A DNA stretch of 62,097 nucleotides from a virus (lineage: Duplodnaviria > Caudoviricetes): positions 1-62,097 of the IMG/VR virus record IMGVR_UViG_3300023181_000031, one strand, 5' to 3'. Positions 14,248 through 57,374 of this stretch are shown piece after piece (position 1 is the first letter of the stretch; the number at the start of each line of letters is the position of its first letter). The position numbers were made by a program, and so were the translations under genes. The notes under the pieces were generated by a model that had not been told where the DNA came from, made no database searches, and worked only from the letters and a program-made list of their open reading frames with translations.

Positions 14248-14250
14248 TTT

Positions 14251-14323
14251 GCCCTTTTAACTCAGTGAATAGAGTACCTGGCTACGAACTAGGGAGTCGT
14301 AAGTTTGATTCTTACAAAGGGTA
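14251..14323 (+). tRNA. tRNA-Arg(ACG), no encoded CCA
   Basis: GCCCTTT/AAAGGGT, ACTC/GAGT, CCTGG-CTACGAA-CTAGG, GTAAG-TTTGATT-CTTAC. Confidence 0.9.
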
Positions 14324-14348
14324 TTTATATATTTTAAGAGGTATAAAA

Positions 14349-24039: not shown

Positions 24040-27000
24040 ATGTTAGAAACTTTATTTGTAATTAGCATAGTATTTGTAATTTATTCCTTAGTTAATATTT
24101 TTACAAAGTATAAAAGTCAAGTTAATGCTTTAGATTGTTTTATATTTTCAATATGTTGTGTTTTTGCTTTAACTTCTTGGCATAGTTTAGAAATAAAAGA
24201 GTTGAAACAAAGAGTTATTATTTTAGAATCAAAACAGGTTAAATAATGAAAACAGAATTTATTTTTAGAAGTAAAATAAGTGATAACTTTGAGTTAGAAA
24301 AAATAATAGGTAGTGAGAAACTAAAAGAAGTTATGTACTTAGATTTAAAAGATAGATTAGATTATATGCACGTTACTGAAACTTGTTTTAAAAAGATTAT
24401 TTATAATCAAAGTGAGTATTATCAAATAGAAGGTATTTTATTATCTGAGAATGTAGAAAAATACAAAGAATCTGTAAGAGAGAGTAAAGAGTTTTATGCT
24501 AAGTTAGAAGAAAAAGTTATTACTGTATCTATTATGAAGCCTGCCTCAATAAGTAAACCTGAAGATTACGGGTTTTAAATATGGAAAGTACACATAAATT
24601 TAGATACATTGTAACTGATGCTGAAAAACGTATAGTAGGTTTAAATAAAATTGGTAAAAATGCTTATAAGTCCTTAAAAGATAAATTTGATAGTTTGTTT
24701 TTAACTGAAACTAATTTTATATTTGTTTCAGGTGCTTTTAATGATTACTTTGAGATAGAAGGTATATTACTTCCAGAGAATAAAGAAAAGTATTATCAAG
24801 AGATAAAACGTATTGATTTAGAAGATAAATTAGAACAAGAAAAACTTAAAAACTTAGTTATTAAAGATTGTGATTGTGGGTGTAATTGCTGTGAGTAAAA
24901 AAATAAGTAATCGTAGGCATCATATAAAAAGCTATTACAAAAATAAAAAGAATAATCTTAAGCCTGTTTTATTTACTTTAAAATTTAATGCACAAAGTTT
25001 TAAACATGATATAGGTGAAATTGTTAAGAATATTAAGTGGTTAGATAAGCAGATTCAACAAGCTATACAAGGAATTAAATTAAATATTAATCAAGTGGGT
25101 TCAAGTTATAGTCAAGATAAAGTAAAACAACAAATGATTATTAATAGTTTTAAAAGGAATAAAAATGATGAGTAAATTTATAGTTGAATACTATGACACT
25201 GAAAAATTAAGAAGAGGTATTGAGCCTGTAAAAAAGATAGAGACAGATAATTTAAGTATTACAGAAACCGAGGATAAAATAATAATTACTATTGATAATA
25301 CATCTTCTAAAAAGGCTAAGGCTTTAGCTAAGTTAACTTATGCGGATAAAGTAGCTTTAGGATTAATAACAGAACATGATAGTAGGGACGGTACTATGGG
25401 ATTAAATATTGATTATAGCAAAGGTAGATAAAAATGATTGATGTTTATATCCCAGTTAAATTACTGGCTTCGATATTATGTTTTTTAATTGTAATTGTTA
25501 GTGTTTATTATTTGAGAGGTAAAAAGATATGACTTTAAAAATAGCGTATTTTCTTAGATTTATAGCTTTAATATTAACTATATTAGCTATTTATAGTCAT
25601 AATTTAAATTATTTTATATTCGCTTGGTTAGTTTATACCGAGAGTAATTTTATGGCTATAGAAAGTAAGTTTGAAGCTATAGGTAAAGGTTTAGGTAAGT
25701 TTAGTAAGATTGCTAAGGAGTTTATGAATGAGTAAAAAATATAAAGTACTTACTGATTTGATTAAAGATTTATCTTATCAAGATATACTAACTTTTGATG
25801 AAAAACAAAACGGTTATTCAATTTTAAAACGAATAGCTCCAAATGTAAAAGGTATGCAATCAATTTTATTTACTAAAGAAACTATAGAAAATTCACCTGA
25901 GTTTTTTAAATTAATTGAGTTTGATTTTAGTAAAAATGAAATAGATTCTAAATTATCTAACATAATAGCTATAAACTCTAATTATAATATCACTGGAAAT
26001 AAAAAGCTATTTATAGAATCTTTAGATGAACATATAAGATATTTGAAAGAACTTAGAGAGAAATTAAATGATTAAATTTTTAAATAAATACGGCTCTGAA
26101 ATTATTCTTATCTTATCATTAACAGGAGTTGTTACAAGTGCGGTTATAGTTGCAGGTTTTATGCCAAGAAATAAAGATTACGCTTTTAGAACTACTACAA
26201 AAACAATTATGGTCCAAGGTTGTGAATATTTAGTAAATGAGTATTGCAACGATGTTAGATGCTATATAGATAATGATATTCAAGATATGAAATTAAAAGT
26301 TAATGGTAATTGTGGAAAGTTAAAAGGTAAATAATATATGTTTGAAGAGTTTGAAATATGTGATAATCCAATAACAGAAACTAAAGAGCAACTTTTATTA
26401 ATCATAGCTGATTTAAACGATGAAATAGACGATTTAAAACATCAATTAAAACTTGCAACAGATAAAGATTATCGTTTAGACTGGATTAATAACGAATGGT
26501 TGCCACGAAACGGATTAAAAAATGTCAAAAATACCTAAATTTCAAGTATCGCAAAAAGTATATTTAAAAACTGATATAATTGCGGCAAGTTATAAATTAA
26601 ATATTAACGCAGAAGGTATAATTCAAGGTGTTTCCACAAATGCTGTAAAAGTATTATATAGCGTTTTATTTACTGATAGCGATTTAGTATTACTTATAAA
26701 TGAATGTTATTTAAATAATGAAAAGATTGAAATAGCTACTGAGACTATTGATGTAAAAGTTGAGAATTTAATATCTGTAATAACTAGGCAAGAATCTAAA
26801 ATAAAAGGTCTACAAGCACAATTAAAAAACTATGAGGATATATTAAATCAAATAGCTAAATTATCTAACCCGTGGAGTTAAAGAAATGAATCAAGGTGAT
26901 TATATAGAAATTAAAAAAGAAATAACCGAGAGTGAATTATATTATTTTAGAGGTGATAAAGATTTACTTATTAGAGCTACTTATCAAGAGATTACTAACG

Positions 27001-28507
27001 AGATTATAAAAGAATTAACTAAGTATATTGTTTTAGAGCATAGAAGTGAGCCTGATACTTGTAGTTTATATTTTAAAGGTAAATTTGATCTTAATTATAA
27101 ATTTACTGAGCAAGAAAATACTATTAAACAATTAGAATTTGATTTAGATACTTTAGAAGAAAGAAATACACAATTAACTCAGGCTGTGGATGTTTTACAT
27201 GCGGAGTGTGGAACTTATGTGGAAATTATCGAAAGTTTACAAGATAATGAGAAAACATTATTCAGTCTTATTGATATTAAAAATAGTGAATTAAAAGATT
27301 ATAGTAGTTTAATTATAAAATTAAGTTATGGAAGTCTTTTTATATTATTTTTAGGGTTAATTATATTTTTTATTTTAAATAGTTAGGTTTATAAAATGTT
27401 TGATTTTAATATTACAAAAGGGTTTATTTTATTAGTTATTTTATCCTTATTTGGTATTTATAAACTAATAGAAATTATAAGAGATTTAATAATATGAATG
27501 AAGAAGATAAAAACAAGCTTGCTTCTCAAATAGAGATAAGACGTATTCAATTAATTCAAGATTGGATATTAGAGCAATTAAACATTACTAAAGAAAGATT
27601 CACAGAGTCTTATCGTAAACTTAGAAACATAGAAATTAATTCAGAACATGTAAACGCTAACTTATCAATTTATAAGCTAATGAAAGATAATAAACAAAAA
27701 GGTTTGACTATGTTTTTATTTCAAAATATAATAGTTAAAGATGGAAAACATAAAGTAGAGTTAAGAAGTCAGTATATTGACGAAAATAAAAAGTAAAAGG
27801 TAAAAATTATAATGCAAAAAGAAATAGAAACAGCAGTTAAGTGGTGGAGTCAATTTTTAGAAACTACAGCTAAGTTTGATAATGGTGATAATAGTCATAC
27901 AGGTTTTATAACTTCTGTTATGGCAAGTATGTTGAGTGAGAACGTAAAAACTACTACACAAGATAAAGAAAAATTTGAAAAAGCATTTACTCAGATTTTA
28001 GAAGAAAAATATAAAACTAATTGGGACGAAAATAATCCTATATTTGGGGCAATGTATAATTCTATAAGCGTAGATTATCACCCTTGTAAATATCTTTGTG
28101 ACGCTGTTTCTTTAGCAGGTTTAGACTATGATATTAATAATAAATTCCCTTATAAAACTAATATGCGTGTACGCCCTGGCTTTGTTTCTGTTAGTTATGG
28201 TTACGGTGCAAAACAAGAGGTTTTATATACAGATAATAGAATAACTACTTTTAATATTCAACCTACTGAAAATCAAATAAATAAATATAAAGAAGAATTA
28301 AAAGATGAAAATGTTTTTTCTATAAAAATAAATGATTTTGAAAAATATAAATATTCTAATAGTAATTACTTATCTTATAGTTTTAATGATTGGGACGATA
28401 CAAAAAATTATGTTTATGTATCATGCTTAAGTAAAGATGCTGAAATAATTCTAAAATTAATTAATGAAAACATTGAATACATTGAATTAACAGAAACAAA
28501 GGAATAA
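24040..28507 (+). other. Rightward block of about 15 small hypothetical CDSs, several with TM segments; 24246 and 24581 are tandem paralogs
   Basis: Head-to-tail ORFs; shared LKD.(L/F)D...TET.F..Y..IEGILL.EN.EKY motif. Confidence 0.7.
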
Positions 28508-29567: not shown

Positions 29568-30272
29568 ATGGCTAGACCTAAGAGTAAAAAAGATAAAGAT
29601 AACGAGCCTGATCTAATAGAACAAGATGAAAAGTTAAAACTAGCACCCGTACACATGGCTATAGATGCTTATTATGGTAGAAACGAAGATAACACAGGTT
29701 CTTTAATTTTTAACGTTAGTGATGAAGATATTGATTTAGACTATCCCGAAGATGATCTCGAAGAGGAAAATTTAAACGAATATAAGCAAGTTGAGAAAGA
29801 ATCTAAAAAAGATGGCACAGAAGAAAAAATAAAAGCTCATCATAAAGTACCTACTCATAGAGAATTTGTAAAAGCGTTTTTTAAACATCGTGGAATTAAA
29901 TTAAATATAGCTAATGAATTAAATATAACTAGACGTGCTTTAGATCGTAGATTAAATAGAAGTAAAACATTAAGAGAAGCTTTAAAAGATGCAATAGCAA
30001 ACGGTGTTGACGGGGCACAAAGTAAGTTAGTTGAACTTATGGACGGTGTAGTTATCCAAGACTATGATTTTAGAGGCAAGCCTATTGTATATAAAACTGT
30101 TCCTTGTACTAAATCAATTCAATTTTATTTACGTAAACAAGGTAAAGAATTAGGTTATGGAGACGAAGTTAAAGAAGAAGCTAAAAAACCTCTTGATAAT
30201 GGCTCTATAGATAATTTAGTCGATGCTATTAATCGAAGTACTGAAAAAATGAATAAAGAAGATAATGCTTAG
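29568..30272 (+). CDS. Terminase small subunit
   Basis: HTH IANELNITRRALDRRL, AQSKL, SIQFYLRKQGKELGY; overlaps terL. Confidence 0.75.
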   Translation: MARPKSKKDKDNEPDLIEQDEKLKLAPVHMAIDAYYGRNEDNTGSLIFNVSDEDIDLDYPEDDLEEENLNEYKQVEKESKKDGTEEKIKAHHKVPTHREFVKAFFKHRGIKLNIANELNITRRALDRRLNRSKTLREALKDAIANGVDGAQSKLVELMDGVVIQDYDFRGKPIVYKTVPCTKSIQFYLRKQGKELGYGDEVKEEAKKPLDNGSIDNLVDAINRSTEKMNKEDNA

Positions 30273-31536
30273 TACCGAAGATAATATAATTAATGCTAAG
30301 TTTCAATTTGGTGAGTTTTCAAGAAAAGCATTATTATCATTAAGTTTAAGTACAGCTCGTTATAATATCTGGGAAGGCTCAGTATCAAGCGGTAAAACTA
30401 TAACCTCTATAGTTAGATGGATTTCATACATAAAGACAGCCCCAAGAGGTCGTCTTTTAATGGTAGGTAAAACAGAACGTACATTAAAAAGAAACGTACT
30501 AGATGATTTACAGGCTATAGTTGGCACTGATAACTATAAGAAAAAAGGTGATGGCGAAATAATTGTTTATGGTCGCGTAATTGATCTTGTTGGAGCTAAT
30601 GATGAAAGGGCACAAGATAAAATAAGGGGTGGTACTTATGCGGGTGCTTATTGCGATGAGATTACCTTATACCCTGAAAGTTTTTTTCAAATGTTAATTA
30701 CTCGTTTAAGGGTGTTAGGCTCTCAATTATTTGGAACTACTAACCCCGATAGTCCTTATCATTGGTTAAAAGAAAATTATTTAAATAATACTAAATTAGA
30801 TTTAAAAATATTTTCCTTTACTATGGATGATAACCCGAATTTAGATCCTAGTTATGTCGAAGCTATGAAAAAAGCATTTACAGGACTTTGGTATAAAAGA
30901 TTTATTCTTGGCTTGTGGGTTATGGCTGCGGGCGTTATTTATGATGTATTTAAAGATGATATACATAAACTAGATTCTATACCTAGTACTTTTGATAGTT
31001 ATTATGTGGGTATGGATTACGGCACTAATAACCCGTGTGTATTCTTACTTTTTGGTAAGCTAAATAATAAGTATTACTTGATTAAAGAGTTTTATCACGA
31101 AGGTAGAAAAGAAGGACAAAAGACTGATTCTTATTATGCTACTAAATTAAAAGAATTTGTTAAGGGTTATAAAATTACTAAGTTTTTCCTTGATCCTAGT
31201 GCATCAAGTTTTAAAACTGAGTTAAAAGAGCAAGGTATTTATACAACTGATGCGGAAAACTCTGTTATTGATGGAATAAGAAAAACATCATCTATTATTG
31301 ATAACAATAGATTATTTATACATACAACTTGTAAACATACCTTAAAAGAATTTTCATCTTATATATGGGATGAAAAAGCAGGTAAAAAAGGCGTTGATAA
31401 GCCTATTAAAGCTAATGACCATGCGTTAGACGCATTACGTTACGTACTTTATAGTTTAGAATCAAGCCCGCCACCTAACGTAGAAGTAATAGAAACTTAC
31501 GGAGATAGAAAAAATTATGATAGTGAATTTGATTAA
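30265..31536 (+). CDS. terL: Terminase large subunit, PBSX family
   Basis: EGSVSSGKT, AYCDE, TTNPDSPYHWLK, GMDYGTNNP, DPSA, NDHALDALRY. Confidence 0.95.
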   Translation: MLSTEDNIINAKFQFGEFSRKALLSLSLSTARYNIWEGSVSSGKTITSIVRWISYIKTAPRGRLLMVGKTERTLKRNVLDDLQAIVGTDNYKKKGDGEIIVYGRVIDLVGANDERAQDKIRGGTYAGAYCDEITLYPESFFQMLITRLRVLGSQLFGTTNPDSPYHWLKENYLNNTKLDLKIFSFTMDDNPNLDPSYVEAMKKAFTGLWYKRFILGLWVMAAGVIYDVFKDDIHKLDSIPSTFDSYYVGMDYGTNNPCVFLLFGKLNNKYYLIKEFYHEGRKEGQKTDSYYATKLKEFVKGYKITKFFLDPSASSFKTELKEQGIYTTDAENSVIDGIRKTSSIIDNNRLFIHTTCKHTLKEFSSYIWDEKAGKKGVDKPIKANDHALDALRYVLYSLESSPPPNVEVIETYGDRKNYDSEFD

Positions 31537-35038: not shown

Positions 35039-36007
35039 ATGGCAAATTTTGCAAATATAAATGTTAATGTTCCTATTACACAGATACAGCTAAAGCGTGT
35101 TTTAGACCATGAAACTTTTATTGTAGATAAAATATTTAAACCTGTTCCTACTGTAAGTGATACAGGTACTTATACAAAATGGGATAATTCACACCTTAGA
35201 ATTGAAGATTCAAAGTTAGGGCCTCACGGTATAGCTAATATTGTTAAATCAAACGTTAGTATTACAGGTAATTTTAATGTTGAAGATTATGCACTTAAAG
35301 AGTTTCTTTCTGATAAAGAATTAACAATGGCTTATCCTACTATTAGACCACAATTAATTAATAATGCTGCTAGTGGTGTTGTTGATAGACTTTGGATTCA
35401 AAAAGAGAAAAAAGCGGCTGATATGCTTTTTAATACTAGTACTTTTGCGGGTAGTACAGAGGCGTTAGGCTCAGGAACTCAGTTCGATGATCCATCAAAT
35501 ACAAGTATATTTGAGCAAATTGGAGACGCTGCACAAACTGTTAAAAATAAATCAGGTAAAAGAGCAAATACAATTATTATGGGTAGTGCTATATGGGCTA
35601 AATTAAGAAATAGACAAGAGTTTCTAGCTAGACTTAAAACAACCGCTGATGCTAAATTCACTACACAAGCATTTCAAAACTTACTTAATTATGATAATTT
35701 AGCTATTAATCAGGTTCTTGTAGGTGATGAACAATACAACGCTGCTAAAGAAGGTCAAGTGGATAACTTTGTAGATTTATGGGGTAATTATTTCTTAGTT
35801 TGTTATATTGAACCAGGTCAAAACTCTACAGCTAACGTTTCACTTGCTAAGAACTTTACAAGAGGCGGACAAGAAACCGTACAAATGAGAGTATTTAAGA
35901 AAGACCCTGAAGAAACAGGTAACTGGTATCGTGCAAATACTGCTTATGATTTAAGAGTTATCATGAGTGCCGCAGGTTATTTATTCTCTAATGTTATTTC
36001 TACATAA
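35039..36007 (+). CDS. Major capsid protein (HK97 fold)
   Basis: FIVDKIFKPV, RANTIIMGSAIWAKL, LWGN, AAGYLFSNVI; position in operon. Confidence 0.88.
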   Translation: MANFANINVNVPITQIQLKRVLDHETFIVDKIFKPVPTVSDTGTYTKWDNSHLRIEDSKLGPHGIANIVKSNVSITGNFNVEDYALKEFLSDKELTMAYPTIRPQLINNAASGVVDRLWIQKEKKAADMLFNTSTFAGSTEALGSGTQFDDPSNTSIFEQIGDAAQTVKNKSGKRANTIIMGSAIWAKLRNRQEFLARLKTTADAKFTTQAFQNLLNYDNLAINQVLVGDEQYNAAKEGQVDNFVDLWGNYFLVCYIEPGQNSTANVSLAKNFTRGGQETVQMRVFKKDPEETGNWYRANTAYDLRVIMSAAGYLFSNVIST

Positions 36008-50679: not shown

Positions 50680-51140
50680 TAGGTCAACCAGGATTATTAG
50701 ATACTCAGCAAACGGAAGCTAGTAACCAATCTGAGCAAAATATGATAAATAATAATATTCAAAATGATTTATTTACTTTGCTTAAATTCGGAGTTGGTAG
50801 AGATGATTTAAAAACTTTATCAGGTCAAAAAATAACCGTTACTAATACTGTTATTGTAAAGAAAAAAGGAATGATAACCTATATTGGTGTTGTTTCTAGT
50901 TCTATTTCTATAAATGTTTTACTTCCTGAAGTGCAAGACATTAATATTTATGATTGTTTTATTATTAAAGATGAGAGTTTAAACGCATCTACATATAATA
51001 TTACTATTATAGCTAATGATAATGTAATTGACGGAGTTAATGCGGATCAAATTATTAATACTAATGGTGGTAAGTTATGGTTAATATGTACTGATATTGA
51101 TTATGATAATAATATTGCTTATTTCTCGGTGTTAAACTAA
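50676..51140 (+). CDS. Tail-associated protein
   Basis: LLP..FIIKDES..NITI..IDG..INTNGG motif typical of fibre-associated domains. Confidence 0.6.
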   Translation: MIGQPGLLDTQQTEASNQSEQNMINNNIQNDLFTLLKFGVGRDDLKTLSGQKITVTNTVIVKKKGMITYIGVVSSSISINVLLPEVQDINIYDCFIIKDESLNASTYNITIIANDNVIDGVNADQIINTNGGKLWLICTDIDYDNNIAYFSVLN

Positions 51141-52444
51141 TGGATGAATTAAATAATATACCCGTTACTACACCGAAAACAAGGTTTTCATGGCCTTATC
51201 AACAAGCTTATAATAACCAAGTACGATTAAATGTAAATCAATTAAAAGATATTGCTGTAGCTACTCAATTAATGATTGATAATTTACAAACTCAAATTAC
51301 AAATGATAATAAACAAAGTGATTGGAATCAAACAGACAACACTAAAATAGATTATATTTTAAATAAACCCGCTTTTACTACTCCCGTTAATGCTGATTGG
51401 AACTCTACAACTGGTTTATCACAAATATTAAATAAACCTGTATTATTTGATGGAAACTATAACAGTTTAATTAATAAGCCAAATTTATTTAATGGAGACT
51501 ATAATAATCTAACAAACAAACCTACTTATTTTAACGGTGATTATAACAACCTTACTAATAAGCCTATTATACCTGCTACACAAATACAAAGTAACTGGAC
51601 TCAATCTGATAATACAAAGTTAGACTTTATAAAGAATAAACCCGTTTTATTTAGTGGCTCTTATACAGATTTAACAAACAAGCCTAGCTTTTTTGATGGA
51701 AATTATAATAACTTAACTAATAAACCTATATTGTTTGATGGTAATTATACTAGTTTAACTAATAAACCAACTATCCCAAATAATACAGCTCAAATAACAG
51801 AAACTACAAGCTTATATTTTACTCAAACAAGAGCAAGAGAAAGTATAACAGCTACTACACCGCTTAATTATAATTCTACAACAGGTGTTTTATCACTTCC
51901 TTTAACTAGCTTTGCACCGGCCTTATTATTTTCACAAACTGAGACAAAAACAGTTAGTGGAGTATTAACAGAAACTAGCTTACTAGGTAATGGTGTAGGA
52001 ACTAAAACACTTACAGCTAATAGCTTAATCCAAGGTAAAACTATCTTAATAAAAGGTAATGGCTTTTTAAGTACAGGGTTAATCAGTTTACCTAACATAA
52101 ATCTTAGATTAAAACTTGGGGGTACTTTATTAGTACAAACAGGTACAGTGCTAATAGTTGGTTTAGGTCAATCTAACGCAGGCTTTGATTTTGAAATATT
52201 ACTTACATGTCAATCTATTGATGTAAATAATAAAGCTGTAATTAGGTGTCAAGGTGTAGCCGGTTATAGTAGCGTAGCAGCACTTAATTTATCAAATCGT
52301 ATATCATACGGTATGACACAAACTACACCTGTTTTAATTGATCCATCAATAGCCCAAACATTTGATATTACTTTTCAATGGGGTTTAGTAACTCTTGGAA
52401 GTACTATTACAATTACAAATTTATATATTCAAACTTTAAACTAA
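51140..52444 (+). CDS. Tail fibre with repeat shaft
   Basis: F(D/N/S)GxYxxLxNKP x6 and (Q/N)(S/A)(D/N)W..I.NKP x3; LYFTQTRAR. Confidence 0.8.
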   Translation: MDELNNIPVTTPKTRFSWPYQQAYNNQVRLNVNQLKDIAVATQLMIDNLQTQITNDNKQSDWNQTDNTKIDYILNKPAFTTPVNADWNSTTGLSQILNKPVLFDGNYNSLINKPNLFNGDYNNLTNKPTYFNGDYNNLTNKPIIPATQIQSNWTQSDNTKLDFIKNKPVLFSGSYTDLTNKPSFFDGNYNNLTNKPILFDGNYTSLTNKPTIPNNTAQITETTSLYFTQTRARESITATTPLNYNSTTGVLSLPLTSFAPALLFSQTETKTVSGVLTETSLLGNGVGTKTLTANSLIQGKTILIKGNGFLSTGLISLPNINLRLKLGGTLLVQTGTVLIVGLGQSNAGFDFEILLTCQSIDVNNKAVIRCQGVAGYSSVAALNLSNRISYGMTQTTPVLIDPSIAQTFDITFQWGLVTLGSTITITNLYIQTLN

Positions 52445-52977: not shown

Positions 52978-53000
52978 AAATTATAAAGGAGTTTAAAAAA

Positions 53001-53510
53001 ATGGCAAATATTACAACAAATTTTCCAGATTATGAGTTAGCAGGTCAAGGCGAAAGATGGACTTTAATTCCAAAAGAGCATCAAAATAATTTAAAAATAC
53101 TAGCAAAGAATATTTTACAACCTGCTAGAGATGATATTAATAAAAATAATCCTAAAAACGATATAGCAATATTTATTACATCGGGTTACAGATCAAGAAA
53201 ACATAATGAAGCCGCTGACGGTGCTAGTAATAGCATGCACTTATATGGTAAAGCTGTAGATATATCATGCTCACAATTTACAGGTATAGAATTTTTTGAA
53301 TATATGCTAAAAAACTTTTCTAATCAAATAGGTGGAATTGGTTTATATGCAAATGAAAACCTAAAAGGAAAGTTTATACATATTGATATGCGACCTAAAC
53401 ATAATGGTAAAGCTATAGTTAGTTGGTATTTTGACGGTTCACGCTATAGATCACCTGGGCCAAAGATGCAAGCTATATTTAAAAAGCTTGGCTTAGCGTT
53501 TGTAGGTTAA
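53001..53510 (+). CDS. Endolysin, peptidase M15 family
   Basis: ITSGYRS, SMHLYGKAVDI, GIGLY, FIHIDMR. Confidence 0.92.
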   Translation: MANITTNFPDYELAGQGERWTLIPKEHQNNLKILAKNILQPARDDINKNNPKNDIAIFITSGYRSRKHNEAADGASNSMHLYGKAVDISCSQFTGIEFFEYMLKNFSNQIGGIGLYANENLKGKFIHIDMRPKHNGKAIVSWYFDGSRYRSPGPKMQAIFKKLGLAFVG

Positions 53511-53512
53511 TT

Positions 53513-53797
53513 ATGAAAATACTTACAGATACTTTAAAAAATAACGGTAAATGGTCTAGTAAAAAACTTACTACTTTAACGTGCTTAGTTCTTTGCATAT
53601 TTATGGCTTTAGTTGATCTTTTTACTGTTTATAAACTAAATATCCAAGTTTTTGAGGCATTCCTTCTCTTAGGTGGCGGAACATCTATCTTGACATCAGC
53701 AACAAACATAGTTAATAAAAAACTAGACAATGATTTAACAAACATAGATAATAATACAAGTACTACTATTAAAGAAACTACAATACAAAAGGGATAA
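53513..53797 (+). CDS. Putative holin (two TM segments)
   Basis: GKWSSKKL followed by two hydrophobic segments; adjacent to endolysin. Confidence 0.7.
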   Translation: MKILTDTLKNNGKWSSKKLTTLTCLVLCIFMALVDLFTVYKLNIQVFEAFLLLGGGTSILTSATNIVNKKLDNDLTNIDNNTSTTIKETTIQKG

Positions 53798-53798
53798 C

Positions 53799-54527
53799 AT
53801 GACCTCTATATTATCAGATAAAGCATTAATTATTGTCGAAGATGATAGTACTATCTCTTTACTTTTAGAAGAGATAGCAACTATCTTAAAAGTTAAAAGC
53901 TTTGAAACTCGTGCAACTGTTGACGAAGCCTTACTATTAATTAAAGACCCTAATTATATTTTTGATTTTATGATACTTGACATTCAACTACCAGGAAATA
54001 AAACAGGTGTAGATTTAGTGACTTATCTTTTTGATAATCATATTACTATGCCTATTTTAGTTTATTCAGCTAATCTAAAAGGCTATAAAAGTAAGTTCTT
54101 AAAATATACTTTATCCGATTTTCTTACAATTAAATTTCTTGAAAAACCTGCGAGTTATGTAGATTTAATTCAAAATATTAACGAAACTATTACTTTGCAT
54201 AATGCTTTAAGAGTTGAAACAGTAGAATTACCAAGATTGCAAAAGGAAATAACAGATTTAAAAATATTTTATGAACAAAAATTTAACGAACAAAAAAATC
54301 AGTATGAATTACAAATAACTGAAGTACAAGAAAAAGCTAATCAAGAAATTCAATTATTAAAAGATAAAGTAGCTAGTTTAGATGAAAACTTTATTCCTGT
54401 AATAAGAAAAATTATACTAGATGAAATTAAAAATAACAAAGGAAAAATCATTATAGGTTTAACGGGTGCTTTTGTTACTGCAACAGGATTTTACTTTGAA
54501 GTATTACAAAAATTCTTTGGTAAATAA
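53799..54527 (+). CDS. Response-regulator receiver domain + coiled coil + C-terminal TM helix
   Basis: IIVEDD (E14-D16), MILD61IQLPG, VYS90A, FLEK116P; IIIGLTGAFVTATGFYF. Confidence 0.88.
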   Translation: MTSILSDKALIIVEDDSTISLLLEEIATILKVKSFETRATVDEALLLIKDPNYIFDFMILDIQLPGNKTGVDLVTYLFDNHITMPILVYSANLKGYKSKFLKYTLSDFLTIKFLEKPASYVDLIQNINETITLHNALRVETVELPRLQKEITDLKIFYEQKFNEQKNQYELQITEVQEKANQEIQLLKDKVASLDENFIPVIRKIILDEIKNNKGKIIIGLTGAFVTATGFYFEVLQKFFGK

Positions 54528-54566
54528 TAAAAAAGATTCTAGCTATTTCTAACTAGAATCTTTTTT
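54528..54566. terminator. Bidirectional intrinsic terminator
   Basis: AAAAAAGATTCTAG/CTAGAATCTTTTTT between convergent operons. Confidence 0.85.
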
Positions 54567-54613
54567 ACTATAAGCTATTGAAAACGGTGATTAAGTTATT
54601 ATTATAACATAAA

Positions 54614-54919
54614 TTAATTATCTTGTAAAATTATAGGTAATCTAAATGTATAACCATAACTAGATCCATGATCACAAGTTTCACAACCTGATTGGTCATG
54701 TTCATCTGTTTCAAAATCTTCAATATTAAAATATTTTCCTATACCTAAAATCATTTTAGAGCTAAAAGGTACTTTTTCATACTCATTATTAATATATACT
54801 TTAACTAAATTATTTTGATCTATAGATATTTCAATTTCAGGATCATAATAATGTGCGTCAAGTTCTCTCCAAAATGTTTTAAAAAATTCTGTTATTTGTT
54901 CTTTTGTAAATTTATTCAT
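54614..54919 (-). CDS. Hypothetical protein
   Basis: SGCETCDHGSSY motif. Confidence 0.65.
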   Translation of the reverse strand: MNKFTKEQITEFFKTFWRELDAHYYDPEIEISIDQNNLVKVYINNEYEKVPFSSKMILGIGKYFNIEDFETDEHDQSGCETCDHGSSYGYTFRLPIILQDN

Positions 54920-55887: not shown

Positions 55888-56532
55888 CTATAAGTTAAAC
55901 GCTTTTAATGTATATTCAAAAGGATTACCGTCTATATTTTTTACTAAATCTAACATTGTCTGGCTGATTTCCCTGATTTCAGCTTGTGAATGGCTATCTA
56001 ATCTTAGTTTAAGAAAGTGGAAAAAACTTCTTATATTAGCTGTAGCATATAACTGAGTATTTAAAGATAATGGTAAGACTCCCCTAGCTTGTTCCTTACA
56101 TACTCCCGCTTGTAATAAATGATTATATGCCGTATAAGCATTATCTAAAGCACTTTCATAAATAAACTTTATTTCTTCTTGGTTTAACTTACCTTCTATA
56201 TCATTTTTACTTCCTTGTTTAATATCTTTATCCTGTAATCTAAACTTATCAGGAGTAAAAAAATCATCTTCAAACTCAACATAACGACCTGATATCTCAT
56301 TAAATGACCATGATCTATGACGCATTAACTGTCTAGCAATATAAATAGGTATCTCTAATCTAAACGTAAAACCGCAATGTTCTAAAGTGCTTACATGATT
56401 ATGTTTTACCAAGTAATTTATTAATTTTTCGTCTGATAAATCTAATACATTTTTATGCTTACCTAATGATACTCTGGCTGAATTAACCACCATAAGATCA
56501 TTACCCCAACTATTAACTAATTCTACTTTCAT
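55888..56532 (-). CDS. thyX: Flavin-dependent thymidylate synthase
   Basis: VVNSARVS, H.STLEH, ARQLMRHRSWSFNEISGRY, EQARGVLP, HSQAEIR. Confidence 0.96.
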   Translation of the reverse strand: MKVELVNSWGNDLMVVNSARVSLGKHKNVLDLSDEKLINYLVKHNHVSTLEHCGFTFRLEIPIYIARQLMRHRSWSFNEISGRYVEFEDDFFTPDKFRLQDKDIKQGSKNDIEGKLNQEEIKFIYESALDNAYTAYNHLLQAGVCKEQARGVLPLSLNTQLYATANIRSFFHFLKLRLDSHSQAEIREISQTMLDLVKNIDGNPFEYTLKAFNL

Positions 56533-57374
56533 AATATTATTAACTCATATCCTTTTTTATTTGTAATACCTTTTTTTATTTTATTTATTGTAGTTAAAGG
56601 AACTTTTGATATTTTAGATAATTCTTTTAAACTATCCGCTATATAAGATTCTCCTGTAATTTTATTAACTAAATTACATTTAATTCTATTATATGCAGGC
56701 TTGCCTATTTTTGATAACCCTAATTTAGCACATCTAGGGTCAGTTTCTTTATTTAAACCTTTATTCCATCTTGGCTTATCTAACATATTTTTCATACGTT
56801 CTTTTTTATGTTCTGCATCTTCTTTTTTCCCATACATACCGTTTTTAGCACCTAATTTAGAAATACTTAATTTCTTTTTAGTTTCATCAGTATGTTTATT
56901 TCCTCTAATTTGATTAGCTCTTTTTTCTATTACTTCTTTAGATTGTTTAACACCTTTCTTTTTTAAACTCATAATTTTTTTACTTTCTTCGGTATGTTTA
57001 TAACCTGTGGGTCTACCCGCTTTAATACAATTATTAAAACCATATTCTCTATTATAAGATTGTAAAATATCCATATAAAATTGTTCTCTAATTAAGAGAT
57101 TATCTTTATCTGTATATTCTAATACTTCAAATATAAAATTTTCTTTAGAATGTAAATTCCAAGCACTTTGTAAATGTGGATTTTTATGTTTGTTATTGTT
57201 TAATGTTCTTAAATGTACCTTAAATCTATTTTCTAAATTTGATGAAGAGCCAATATAATATTTATTATTAACTAAACAAGTTATTTTATAAATACCACTA
57301 AGATTCTTTAAATCCTGAAAACAATTAGTGGTATTTTCTATATCTTTAAATACATACGAAATAAACATTTTCAA
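56529..57374 (-). CDS. Free-standing GIY-YIG homing endonuclease with NUMOD3 repeats
   Basis: SGIYKI..YYIGSS..R, REQFY, GYKHTEESKK, GNKHTDETKK; own TGTTATACT at 57413-57405. Confidence 0.92.
   Translation of the reverse strand: MKMFISYVFKDIENTTNCFQDLKNLSGIYKITCLVNNKYYIGSSSNLENRFKVHLRTLNNNKHKNPHLQSAWNLHSKENFIFEVLEYTDKDNLLIREQFYMDILQSYNREYGFNNCIKAGRPTGYKHTEESKKIMSLKKKGVKQSKEVIEKRANQIRGNKHTDETKKKLSISKLGAKNGMYGKKEDAEHKKERMKNMLDKPRWNKGLNKETDPRCAKLGLSKIGKPAYNRIKCNLVNKITGESYIADSLKELSKISKVPLTTINKIKKGITNKKGYELIIL

Follow-up and report, generated by a model that had tools for sequence, protein, structure and literature searches.

The lysis cassette of a tailed phage ends in a gene for a protein of 242 amino acids (aa), here named P0001, in which a receiver (REC) domain is followed by a long helix and a C-terminal hydrophobic segment. 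The phage is represented by the IMG/VR virus record IMGVR_UViG_3300023181_000031, which was analysed as a whole (62,097 bases, 27% G+C) and is called the window below. P0001 contains a genuine receiver domain and belongs to the receiver superfamily and, on the evidence of its sequence, it appears to lie outside every known lysis-protein family. It is part of a rare, conserved and phage-borne family of receiver-helix-transmembrane (REC-helix-TM) proteins that combine an intact phospho-acceptor site with a membrane anchor. As a tentative reading, to which we give somewhat less than an even chance, P0001 may be a part of the holin machinery that sits in the membrane and is switched by phosphorylation.

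Receiver domain, long helix and membrane anchor

Residues 11-110 of P0001 match the Pfam family PF00072 with an E value of 4.6e-10 and 40.1 bits (cut-off 30.2). The same scan of the protein gave no DNA-binding or other output domain, in agreement with the initial annotation, which had been made from the DNA letters and a list of open reading frames (ORFs) and had seen no DNA-binding output. An AlphaFold2 (AF2) model, built on the family alignment described below, has a mean predicted local distance difference test (pLDDT) score of 87 and displays the canonical (beta-alpha)5 fold, with strands at residues 9-13, 34-38, 57-60, 84-90 and 109-115 alternating with helices. When this model was compared with the PDB by Foldseek, at least 454 matches were obtained at E<=0.001, with a top probability of 1.00, and all of the matches listed are receiver-domain proteins or constructs. 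Among them are structures in which alpha5 runs into a coiled coil, namely the REC-coiled-coil fusion construct 6oec, WspR (3bre) and EutV (6wsh). The receiver active site that had been read from the letters is indeed present and consists of E14-D15, the phospho-acceptor D61, S90 and K116-P117; the roles of these residues, assigned by the canonical CheY/PhoB motifs, are presumably the same in P0001.

Behind the receiver domain, about 70 residues of coiled coil had been proposed. In the AF2 model, alpha5 continues without interruption as a helix of 93 residues, with pLDDT values of 87-98 up to about residue 190, and a second helix is placed with lower confidence at residues 214-240. A periodicity of 3.67 residues in the stretch 147-212 was reached by only 3 of 1000 shuffles in a crude Fourier test. 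Since there is no clear heptad signal but a 3.67-residue periodicity, the proposed coiled coil does not hold in its classic form and we use the term long amphipathic helix; possibly, it is a coiled coil of the hendecad type. The length of this helix varies in the family: between two conserved columns of the alignment it measures 19 residues in most members, 26 residues, or one heptad more, in three of them and 52 residues, or 33 more, in P0001.

The single C-terminal hydrophobic helix of the initial annotation is marginal in P0001 itself (Kyte-Doolittle (KD) mean 1.56), yet such a segment is found in 15 of 15 members of the family, with KD values of 1.41-2.49. Elsewhere in P0001, the receiver domain has a maximum KD of 1.14 and the N-terminus is without a hydrophobic stretch. 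The ten residues ahead of the anchor carry a net positive charge in 14 of the 15 members, while the longer tails that follow it in family members are net negative, and because of this distribution of charge the segment is predicted to be a tail anchor with an N-in, C-out orientation. The receiver domain and the long helix would then be cytoplasmic, given that there is no N-terminal signal and that only 7 residues follow the anchor. The cytoplasm is the only compartment where a receiver can be phosphorylated. Small residues are frequent in the family anchors, Gly, Ala, Ser and Thr making up 21-63% of the 19 residues.

Conservation of the family and genomic context of its members

P0001 retrieved only itself in a word-indexed protein search. 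When 1.84 billion representatives were searched exhaustively with HMMER, 128 matches were obtained at E<=1e-3, 15 of which were inspected by sequence; the other 113 lie outside this sample, and the family may be somewhat larger than described here. Ten of the inspected matches (199-234 aa) share the full arrangement, in which the receiver is followed by a linker, the long helix and a hydrophobic segment at the C-terminus, and the remaining five are ordinary regulators that do not belong to the family. Three further members, P0140-P0142, came from a profile search, of which the larger matches, P0143-P0160, were set aside as multi-receiver proteins. The ten family clusters hold 21 sequences, all of metagenome origin, and the names given to them by their sources are automatic only, such as 'CheY-like' or 'OmpR family'.

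In an alignment of 15 sequences including P0001, with 22-33% identity to P0001, all 15 have D15, D61 and K116, and 14 have S90. The initial annotation had named loss of D61 among homologs as a point that would speak against its idea; the residue proved invariant and the idea was not refuted. Conservation of the catalytic residues would be expected if the receiver is truly phosphorylated, and not if it is a pseudo-receiver, which argues that phosphorylation would matter for P0001. All of the 11 members scanned match PF00072, and 10 of the 11 match phrog_731 and, likewise, 10 match phrog_5982, both of which are listed as 'unknown function'.

In cultured phages, tblastn with P0001 gave no match and tblastn with the family member P0002 gave one weak match, to an unannotated 12-kb record. 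Searches of genome contigs with the family alignment and with P0011 yielded no relative, and a search of the ESM Atlas with residues 125-242 of P0001 returned generic long-helix look-alikes only. Neither P0001 alone nor two further family alignments found a match in viral contigs. Another family alignment led to the contig L003, a giant-virus-like contig of 166 kb, where the match is a hybrid histidine kinase and not a family member. This protein of 655 aa (positions 4453-6420 of L003) contains receiver domains and is encoded beside a Ser/Thr-kinase-like gene.

With the family alignment itself, the viral contigs yielded the family member P0003 on a contig of 42,306 bases (L002), hereafter G001. 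The G001 record is estimated to be 41% complete and the window 47% (CheckV), both below 50%. The two share six pairs of ORFs at E<=1e-5, in the same order and with 21-33% identity; the identity amounts to 26% for the gene after the terminase, 25% for the capsid, 21-25% for the tail protein and 30% for the receiver protein. The gene order in G001 is a tail fibre with a Peptidase_S74 chaperone, a 208-aa Amidase_2 protein, a gap of 74 nucleotides (nt), the receiver gene P0003 and a convergent ParB-like gene. The 208-aa protein matches Amidase_2 with 27 bits (cut-off 26) and the endolysin family phrog_5867 with an E value of 2.6e-8. P0003 lies directly after an endolysin and closes the late operon, ahead of the convergent genes. 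No membrane ORF is present inside the 74-nt gap, P0003 is the only membrane protein of the G001 cassette, and no homolog of the window's 94-aa holin-like protein occurs within the 42 kb of G001.

The receiver gene has therefore kept its place behind the endolysin while the endolysin was swapped for an unrelated type. Because the gene is linked to 'an endolysin' and not to one endolysin family, a functional tie can be argued. The position next to an endolysin is seen in both of the two readable loci. Absence of such a linkage had been named beforehand as grounds for rejecting a lysis role; the only other readable homolog lies directly after an endolysin at a late-operon end, and that role was thus not refuted by this comparison either.

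Other scans of the viral contigs extended the context very little. A scan with the large terminase subunit (TerL) gave the contig G002, with a terminase that is 82% identical; a scan with the window endolysin gave no match, and one with a tail-protein alignment gave only G002 and one contig that ends in the tail gene. On G002 (L014, 13061-13272), an M15 endolysin with 57% identity occupies the same place after the tail genes, and the contig stops inside this endolysin gene.

As the initial annotation had stated, no histidine kinase seems to accompany the receiver. The HATPase_c and HisKA profiles found nothing in the 62 kb of the 47%-complete window record or in G001, and, in the reference genomes used as controls, they were positive in 14 of 14 and 13 of 14 cases.

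The lysis cassette and the phage record

The three ORFs of the cassette lie where the initial annotation had placed them, with the 242-aa gene starting 1 nt after the stop of the holin-like gene (Table 1). The first product was correctly called an endolysin: it matches PF08291 with an E value of 4.1e-13 and 49.8 bits (cut-off 23.2) and phrog_894 'endolysin' with an E value of 1.1e-25. It has no N-terminal hydrophobic stretch, signal or transmembrane segment. In a tblastn search of cultured phages, relatives were found in 191 records, with Flavobacterium phages on top at 38% identity. They belong mainly to phages of Escherichia, Klebsiella, Vibrio, Proteus and Flavobacterium, in addition to microviruses, so that the phages carrying such relatives mostly have Gram-negative hosts. 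As neither this endolysin nor that of G001 has a signal or a signal-arrest-release (SAR) segment, a holin function would be required in both cases.

The second product, of 94 aa, has a basic N-terminus followed by hydrophobic helices and a polar C-terminal tail. It had been described as a holin with two transmembrane segments. One of these, at residues 19-44, is strongly hydrophobic (19-residue KD mean of up to 2.36); the other, a Gly/Ser/Thr-rich stretch at residues 42-67, is of marginal hydropathy (1.29-1.39), and the protein has no family match in Pfam or PHROG. On the basis of hydropathy and position, a two-segment holin remains a plausible description. Its AF2 model is poor (pLDDT 59.7), and only two relatives were found in a search of 5.8 billion cluster representatives. 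The sequence does not contain a dual-start motif, and any antiholin would therefore have to be a separate protein. A complex prediction for the 94-aa protein with residues 140-242 of P0001 gave a score of 0.00 against a mark of 0.32, without controls, and weighs neither for nor against binding. Among the relatives of the 94-aa protein (P0228 and P0229), P0229 is 62% identical to it: the last 37 residues are the same and the membrane part has diverged, which looks, at the level of the sequences, like a recombination joint within the gene.

The terminator that had been proposed to close the cassette appears to exist as a strong hairpin of 15+2 base pairs, with a folding energy of -16.8 kcal/mol and a z of -5.67, which none of 200 shuffles equalled. 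A consensus terminator scan gave 0 terminators, probably because the loop region is longer than the limit of the scan. The hairpin is likely a bidirectional intrinsic terminator.

Table 1. Features of the window discussed in the text, with positions counted from its first base
Feature	Position	Strand	Remarks
REC-helix-TM protein P0001, 242 aa	53799..54527	+	begins 1 nt past the stop of the holin-like gene; final gene of the late operon
REC domain, residues 1-119	53799..54155	+	PF00072, AF2 fold, Foldseek, residue conservation
alpha5 extended as one long amphipathic helix, residues 120-212	54156..54434	+	AF2, periodicity, spacing table
C-terminal hydrophobic segment IIIGLTGAFVTATGFYFEV, residues 217-235	54447..54503	+	KNNKGK before, 7 residues after
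Hairpin between convergent genes	54528..54567	.	A6 on 5' side, T6 on 3' side; folding versus shuffles
Endolysin, 169 aa	53001..53510	+	single-domain Peptidase_M15_3 (Pfam PF08291)
Holin-like membrane protein, 94 aa	53513..53797	+	begins 2 nt past the endolysin stop
Terminase large subunit	30265-31536	+	closest cultured relative Bacillus phage Flasso, 53.7% identity
Major capsid protein	35039-36007	+	
Tape-measure protein, 2094 aa	40813-47097	+	
Tail and fibre genes	extend to 52444	+	

The source of the window is a tailed phage, and the cassette, at 53001-54527, forms the extreme 3' end of the late operon on the + strand. Downstream of it, the other strand encodes ThyX, a GIY-YIG homing endonuclease and an exonuclease. 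By a strict rule, ribosome-binding sites of the AAGGAG type precede 26 of the 63 genes of the window. In the stretch 55888-57374 (- strand), the gene of the GIY-YIG endonuclease (phrog_314, 1e-28), which is free-standing, adjoins that of the flavin-type thymidylate synthase (phrog_85, 1.1e-66), with an overlap of 4 nt. The sole tRNA gene of the record is a tRNA-Arg (ACG) at 14250-14324 on the + strand. The tail-fibre-like protein encoded at 51140-52444 (+ strand; phrog_9729) carries many tandem copies of the short motif 'LTNKP..F.G.Y..'. A 166-aa protein encoded 5' of the structural module (26886-27386, + strand) has one strong C-terminal hydrophobic segment (KD 2.54) and no PHROG match. PADLOC gave no match for the proteins of the window.

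Possible role in lysis and alternative explanations

If P0001 belongs to the holin machinery, it would be a tail-anchored protein of the inner membrane, with the receiver and the long helix facing the cytoplasm, and it would be co-produced with the endolysin and the 94-aa protein, their three genes forming the end of the late operon. It could act as an antiholin or a co-holin of the 94-aa protein; in relatives without an adjacent holin, as in G001, the receiver protein itself might be the holin and form the lesion. Dimerisation would occur via the alpha4-beta5-alpha5 face and via the long extension of alpha5, alpha5 being the element that shifts upon receiver phosphorylation. It could be imagined that a host histidine kinase or acetyl phosphate phosphorylates D61 and that the REC dimer then re-packs, leading to a shift of the long helices in register or rotation, as in Rec-coiled-coil regulators of the DgcR type. 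Such a shift could alter the packing of the small-residue-rich membrane helices, either mutually or with the holin, and in this way hole formation would be restrained or promoted. The timing of lysis would thereby be coupled to the signalling or energy state of the host. In this scheme, we infer phosphorylation, membrane topology, dimerisation and any effect on lysis from the features of the protein and its family.

A broader form of this proposal is that two-component phosphotransfer gates lysis timing post-translationally. A tail-anchored receiver made by the phage would sense a host kinase or the pool of acetyl phosphate and, through its helix, hold back or trigger the holin, resulting in a phosphorylation-based 'dead-man's switch' or in a lysis inhibition driven by host envelope-stress signalling. 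Where no holin is encoded next to it, it would represent a holin of a new class, equipped with a sensor domain in the cytoplasm. We regard this broader form as possible, though on balance doubtful.

The reading in terms of lysis timing is attractive, and it is circumstantial. Spacers of 2 nt and 1 nt in the cassette and the strong hairpin behind it count for a role in lysis. The phosphorylation-gated holin or antiholin of the initial annotation has found support in part, in that a conserved REC-helix-TM family exists and is linked to lysis genes in two of two loci, which come from one lineage. Several observations weigh against such a role. P0001 and its family have no similarity to holin, antiholin, XhlA or spanin families among the Pfam and PHROG families shown, and accessory 'moron' genes, too, are usually found at late-operon ends. 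The context is limited to two loci, both of a single broad lineage of phages that share their gene order, and the synteny could be inherited and not selected. With about 15 representative or cluster-member sequences among some 15 billion proteins, the family is rare. As for P0001 itself, its hydrophobic segment is marginal when taken alone (residues 217-235, 19-residue window), and heptad (3.5) periodicity in residues 147-212 is not supported, being equalled by 825 of 1000 shuffles in the crude Fourier test. Furthermore, 14 of 15 members have a Cys in the linker just behind alpha5, and P0001, with Ala there, is the sole exception; the Cys might have a redox-related role or serve as a disulphide lock. 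Finally, no kinase was found in the window or the G001 record, both estimated to be less than half complete.

By the usual description of a holin, P0001 does not qualify: it has one hydrophobic segment, but it is 242 aa long, with a cytoplasmic part of 216 residues, and it matches no holin family of Pfam or PHROG. For antiholins, we know of no definition by sequence.

The main alternative is that P0001 is a membrane-tethered receiver acting on host signalling and not on lysis. It might be a phosphate sink or decoy that sits beside membrane histidine kinases and blunts or hijacks a host two-component response, for example in envelope stress or defence, or it might have some other 'moron' function at the end of the late operon. 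We consider this explanation rather unlikely. In its favour, P0001 combines a conserved, intact phospho-acceptor site with the lack of an output domain, and single-domain receivers are known as phosphate sinks; the anchor would bring the receiver near membrane kinases, neither the window nor G001 encodes a kinase of its own, and no homology to lysis proteins is found. Phages also carry response regulators as auxiliary genes, an example being the PhoB-like G48 of an Alteromonas phage (PMC8228385). An action on host signalling would leave several features of the locus without a reason, however. The position behind the endolysin is kept in G001 despite an identity of only 21-33% in the structural module (25% for the capsid) and despite a different type of endolysin, 1 nt separates the gene of P0001 from the holin-like gene, and conservation extends to the long helix and to the anchor with its many small residues, neither of which a simple sink would need.

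The location of P0001 in a lysis cassette, together with its overall layout, which is also that of XhlA, would also suit a lysis accessory of the XhlA kind, in which the receiver fold is only a module for dimerisation or binding and is never phosphorylated. That no kinase is at hand in the window or G001 would fit as well. This possibility is made improbable by the conservation of the catalytic residues at 22-33% identity, as pseudo-receivers usually lose them, and by the lack of a Pfam match to XhlA. Far less probable still, and hardly to be expected, is that P0001 is a spanin-like or another envelope-disrupting protein. It does occupy the usual third slot of a Gram-negative cassette, after endolysin and holin, and has a long helix and one membrane segment; the relatives of the endolysin are mainly from phages of Gram-negative hosts, and, as in the initial annotation, no spanin was recognised elsewhere in the cassette. 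However, the N-terminal receiver domain of P0001 is soluble and its sole hydrophobic segment is C-terminal, with 7 residues behind it and no N-terminal signal, which would leave helix and receiver in the cytoplasm, and spanins are periplasmic. Nor does a partner seem to be encoded: a lipobox ORF of at least 20 aa, additional to the known genes on the + strand, was not found in 53000-54620.

Likeness to known systems and biological meaning

The notion of P0001 as a phosphorylation-switched part of the holin machinery can be set against several known systems. In the literature searched, which is largely without subscription journals, no paper was found that describes a CheY-like receiver encoded among phage lysis genes or a response regulator with a tail anchor. 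In its layout, P0001 is reminiscent of XhlA from the Bacillus subtilis prophage PBSX, a protein of about 90 aa in which a helical part in the cytoplasm is held by one membrane anchor at the C-terminus, and whose gene neighbours those of a holin and an endolysin. Both proteins have a cytoplasmic helix and a C-terminal anchor and both belong to a lysis cassette. The resemblance, which had been pointed out in the initial annotation, is one of layout only: XhlA is without a receiver domain and far shorter, P0001 had no match to the XhlA profile or to a holin profile of Pfam at E<=1 (five matches in all), and for the 11 members scanned there was no XhlA match among 25 of 29 families.

Cytoplasmic control of lysis is not new. 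T4 RIII is a lysis regulator that faces the cytoplasm. In phage N4, a lysis regulator, gp62, and a cytoplasmic regulatory region of the pinholin gp63 have been described (PMC12642591). These systems and P0001 have in common that a separate small protein or domain would set the timing of lysis from the cytoplasmic side; they differ in that T4 RIII and N4 gp62/gp63 contain no CheY-like receiver and show no homology to P0001. The 'Receiver domain' of the N4 authors is their own name for a Ser/Thr-rich stretch and an unrelated usage (PMC12642591).

An involvement of phosphorylated receivers in lysis has precedents at the level of transcription. In Yersinia entomophaga, a lysis cassette is reported to be under the control of a PhoB-like regulator (bioRxiv 10.1101/2023.02.08.527387). 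In Staphylococcus, LytSR is reported to control lrgAB transcriptionally and, according to the title of the paper, acetyl phosphate can replace the kinase (PMC4830213). In these systems, as would be the case for P0001, a phosphorylated receiver decides whether and when holin-type proteins act. In contrast to P0001, which is phage-encoded, membrane-anchored and without a DNA-binding domain, these regulators are soluble DNA-binding transcription factors of the host.

The long helix has its counterpart in DgcR (Rec-GGDEF), in which the two REC halves rotate upon pseudo-phosphorylation and the coiled-coil linker changes to another register (PMC8041772). An alpha5 that extends into a long helix is common to DgcR, WspR (3bre), EutV (6wsh) and P0001. 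The helix of the other three ends in an enzymatic or RNA-binding domain, whereas that of P0001 ends in a membrane anchor and is without a heptad signal. The phage-encoded G48 of Alteromonas phage R8W, a PhoB-type response regulator described as an auxiliary metabolic gene (PMC8228385), is another receiver without a kinase of its own and presumably uses a host kinase. It differs from P0001 in having a DNA-binding output, in being soluble and in lying outside a lysis cassette.

The triggering of holins is known to be controlled by holin concentration, by membrane potential, by dual-start antiholins and by periplasmic or cytoplasmic binders such as T4 RI/RIII and N4 gp62. To our knowledge, none of the known controls makes use of phosphotransfer. 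If the proposed role of P0001 is true, it would therefore represent a new input channel, through which a phage reads the physiology of its host before the commitment to lysis. P0001 would also be one of the rare response regulators whose 'output' is a membrane helix, and the cassette would provide synthetic biology with a compact lysis module under phospho-control.

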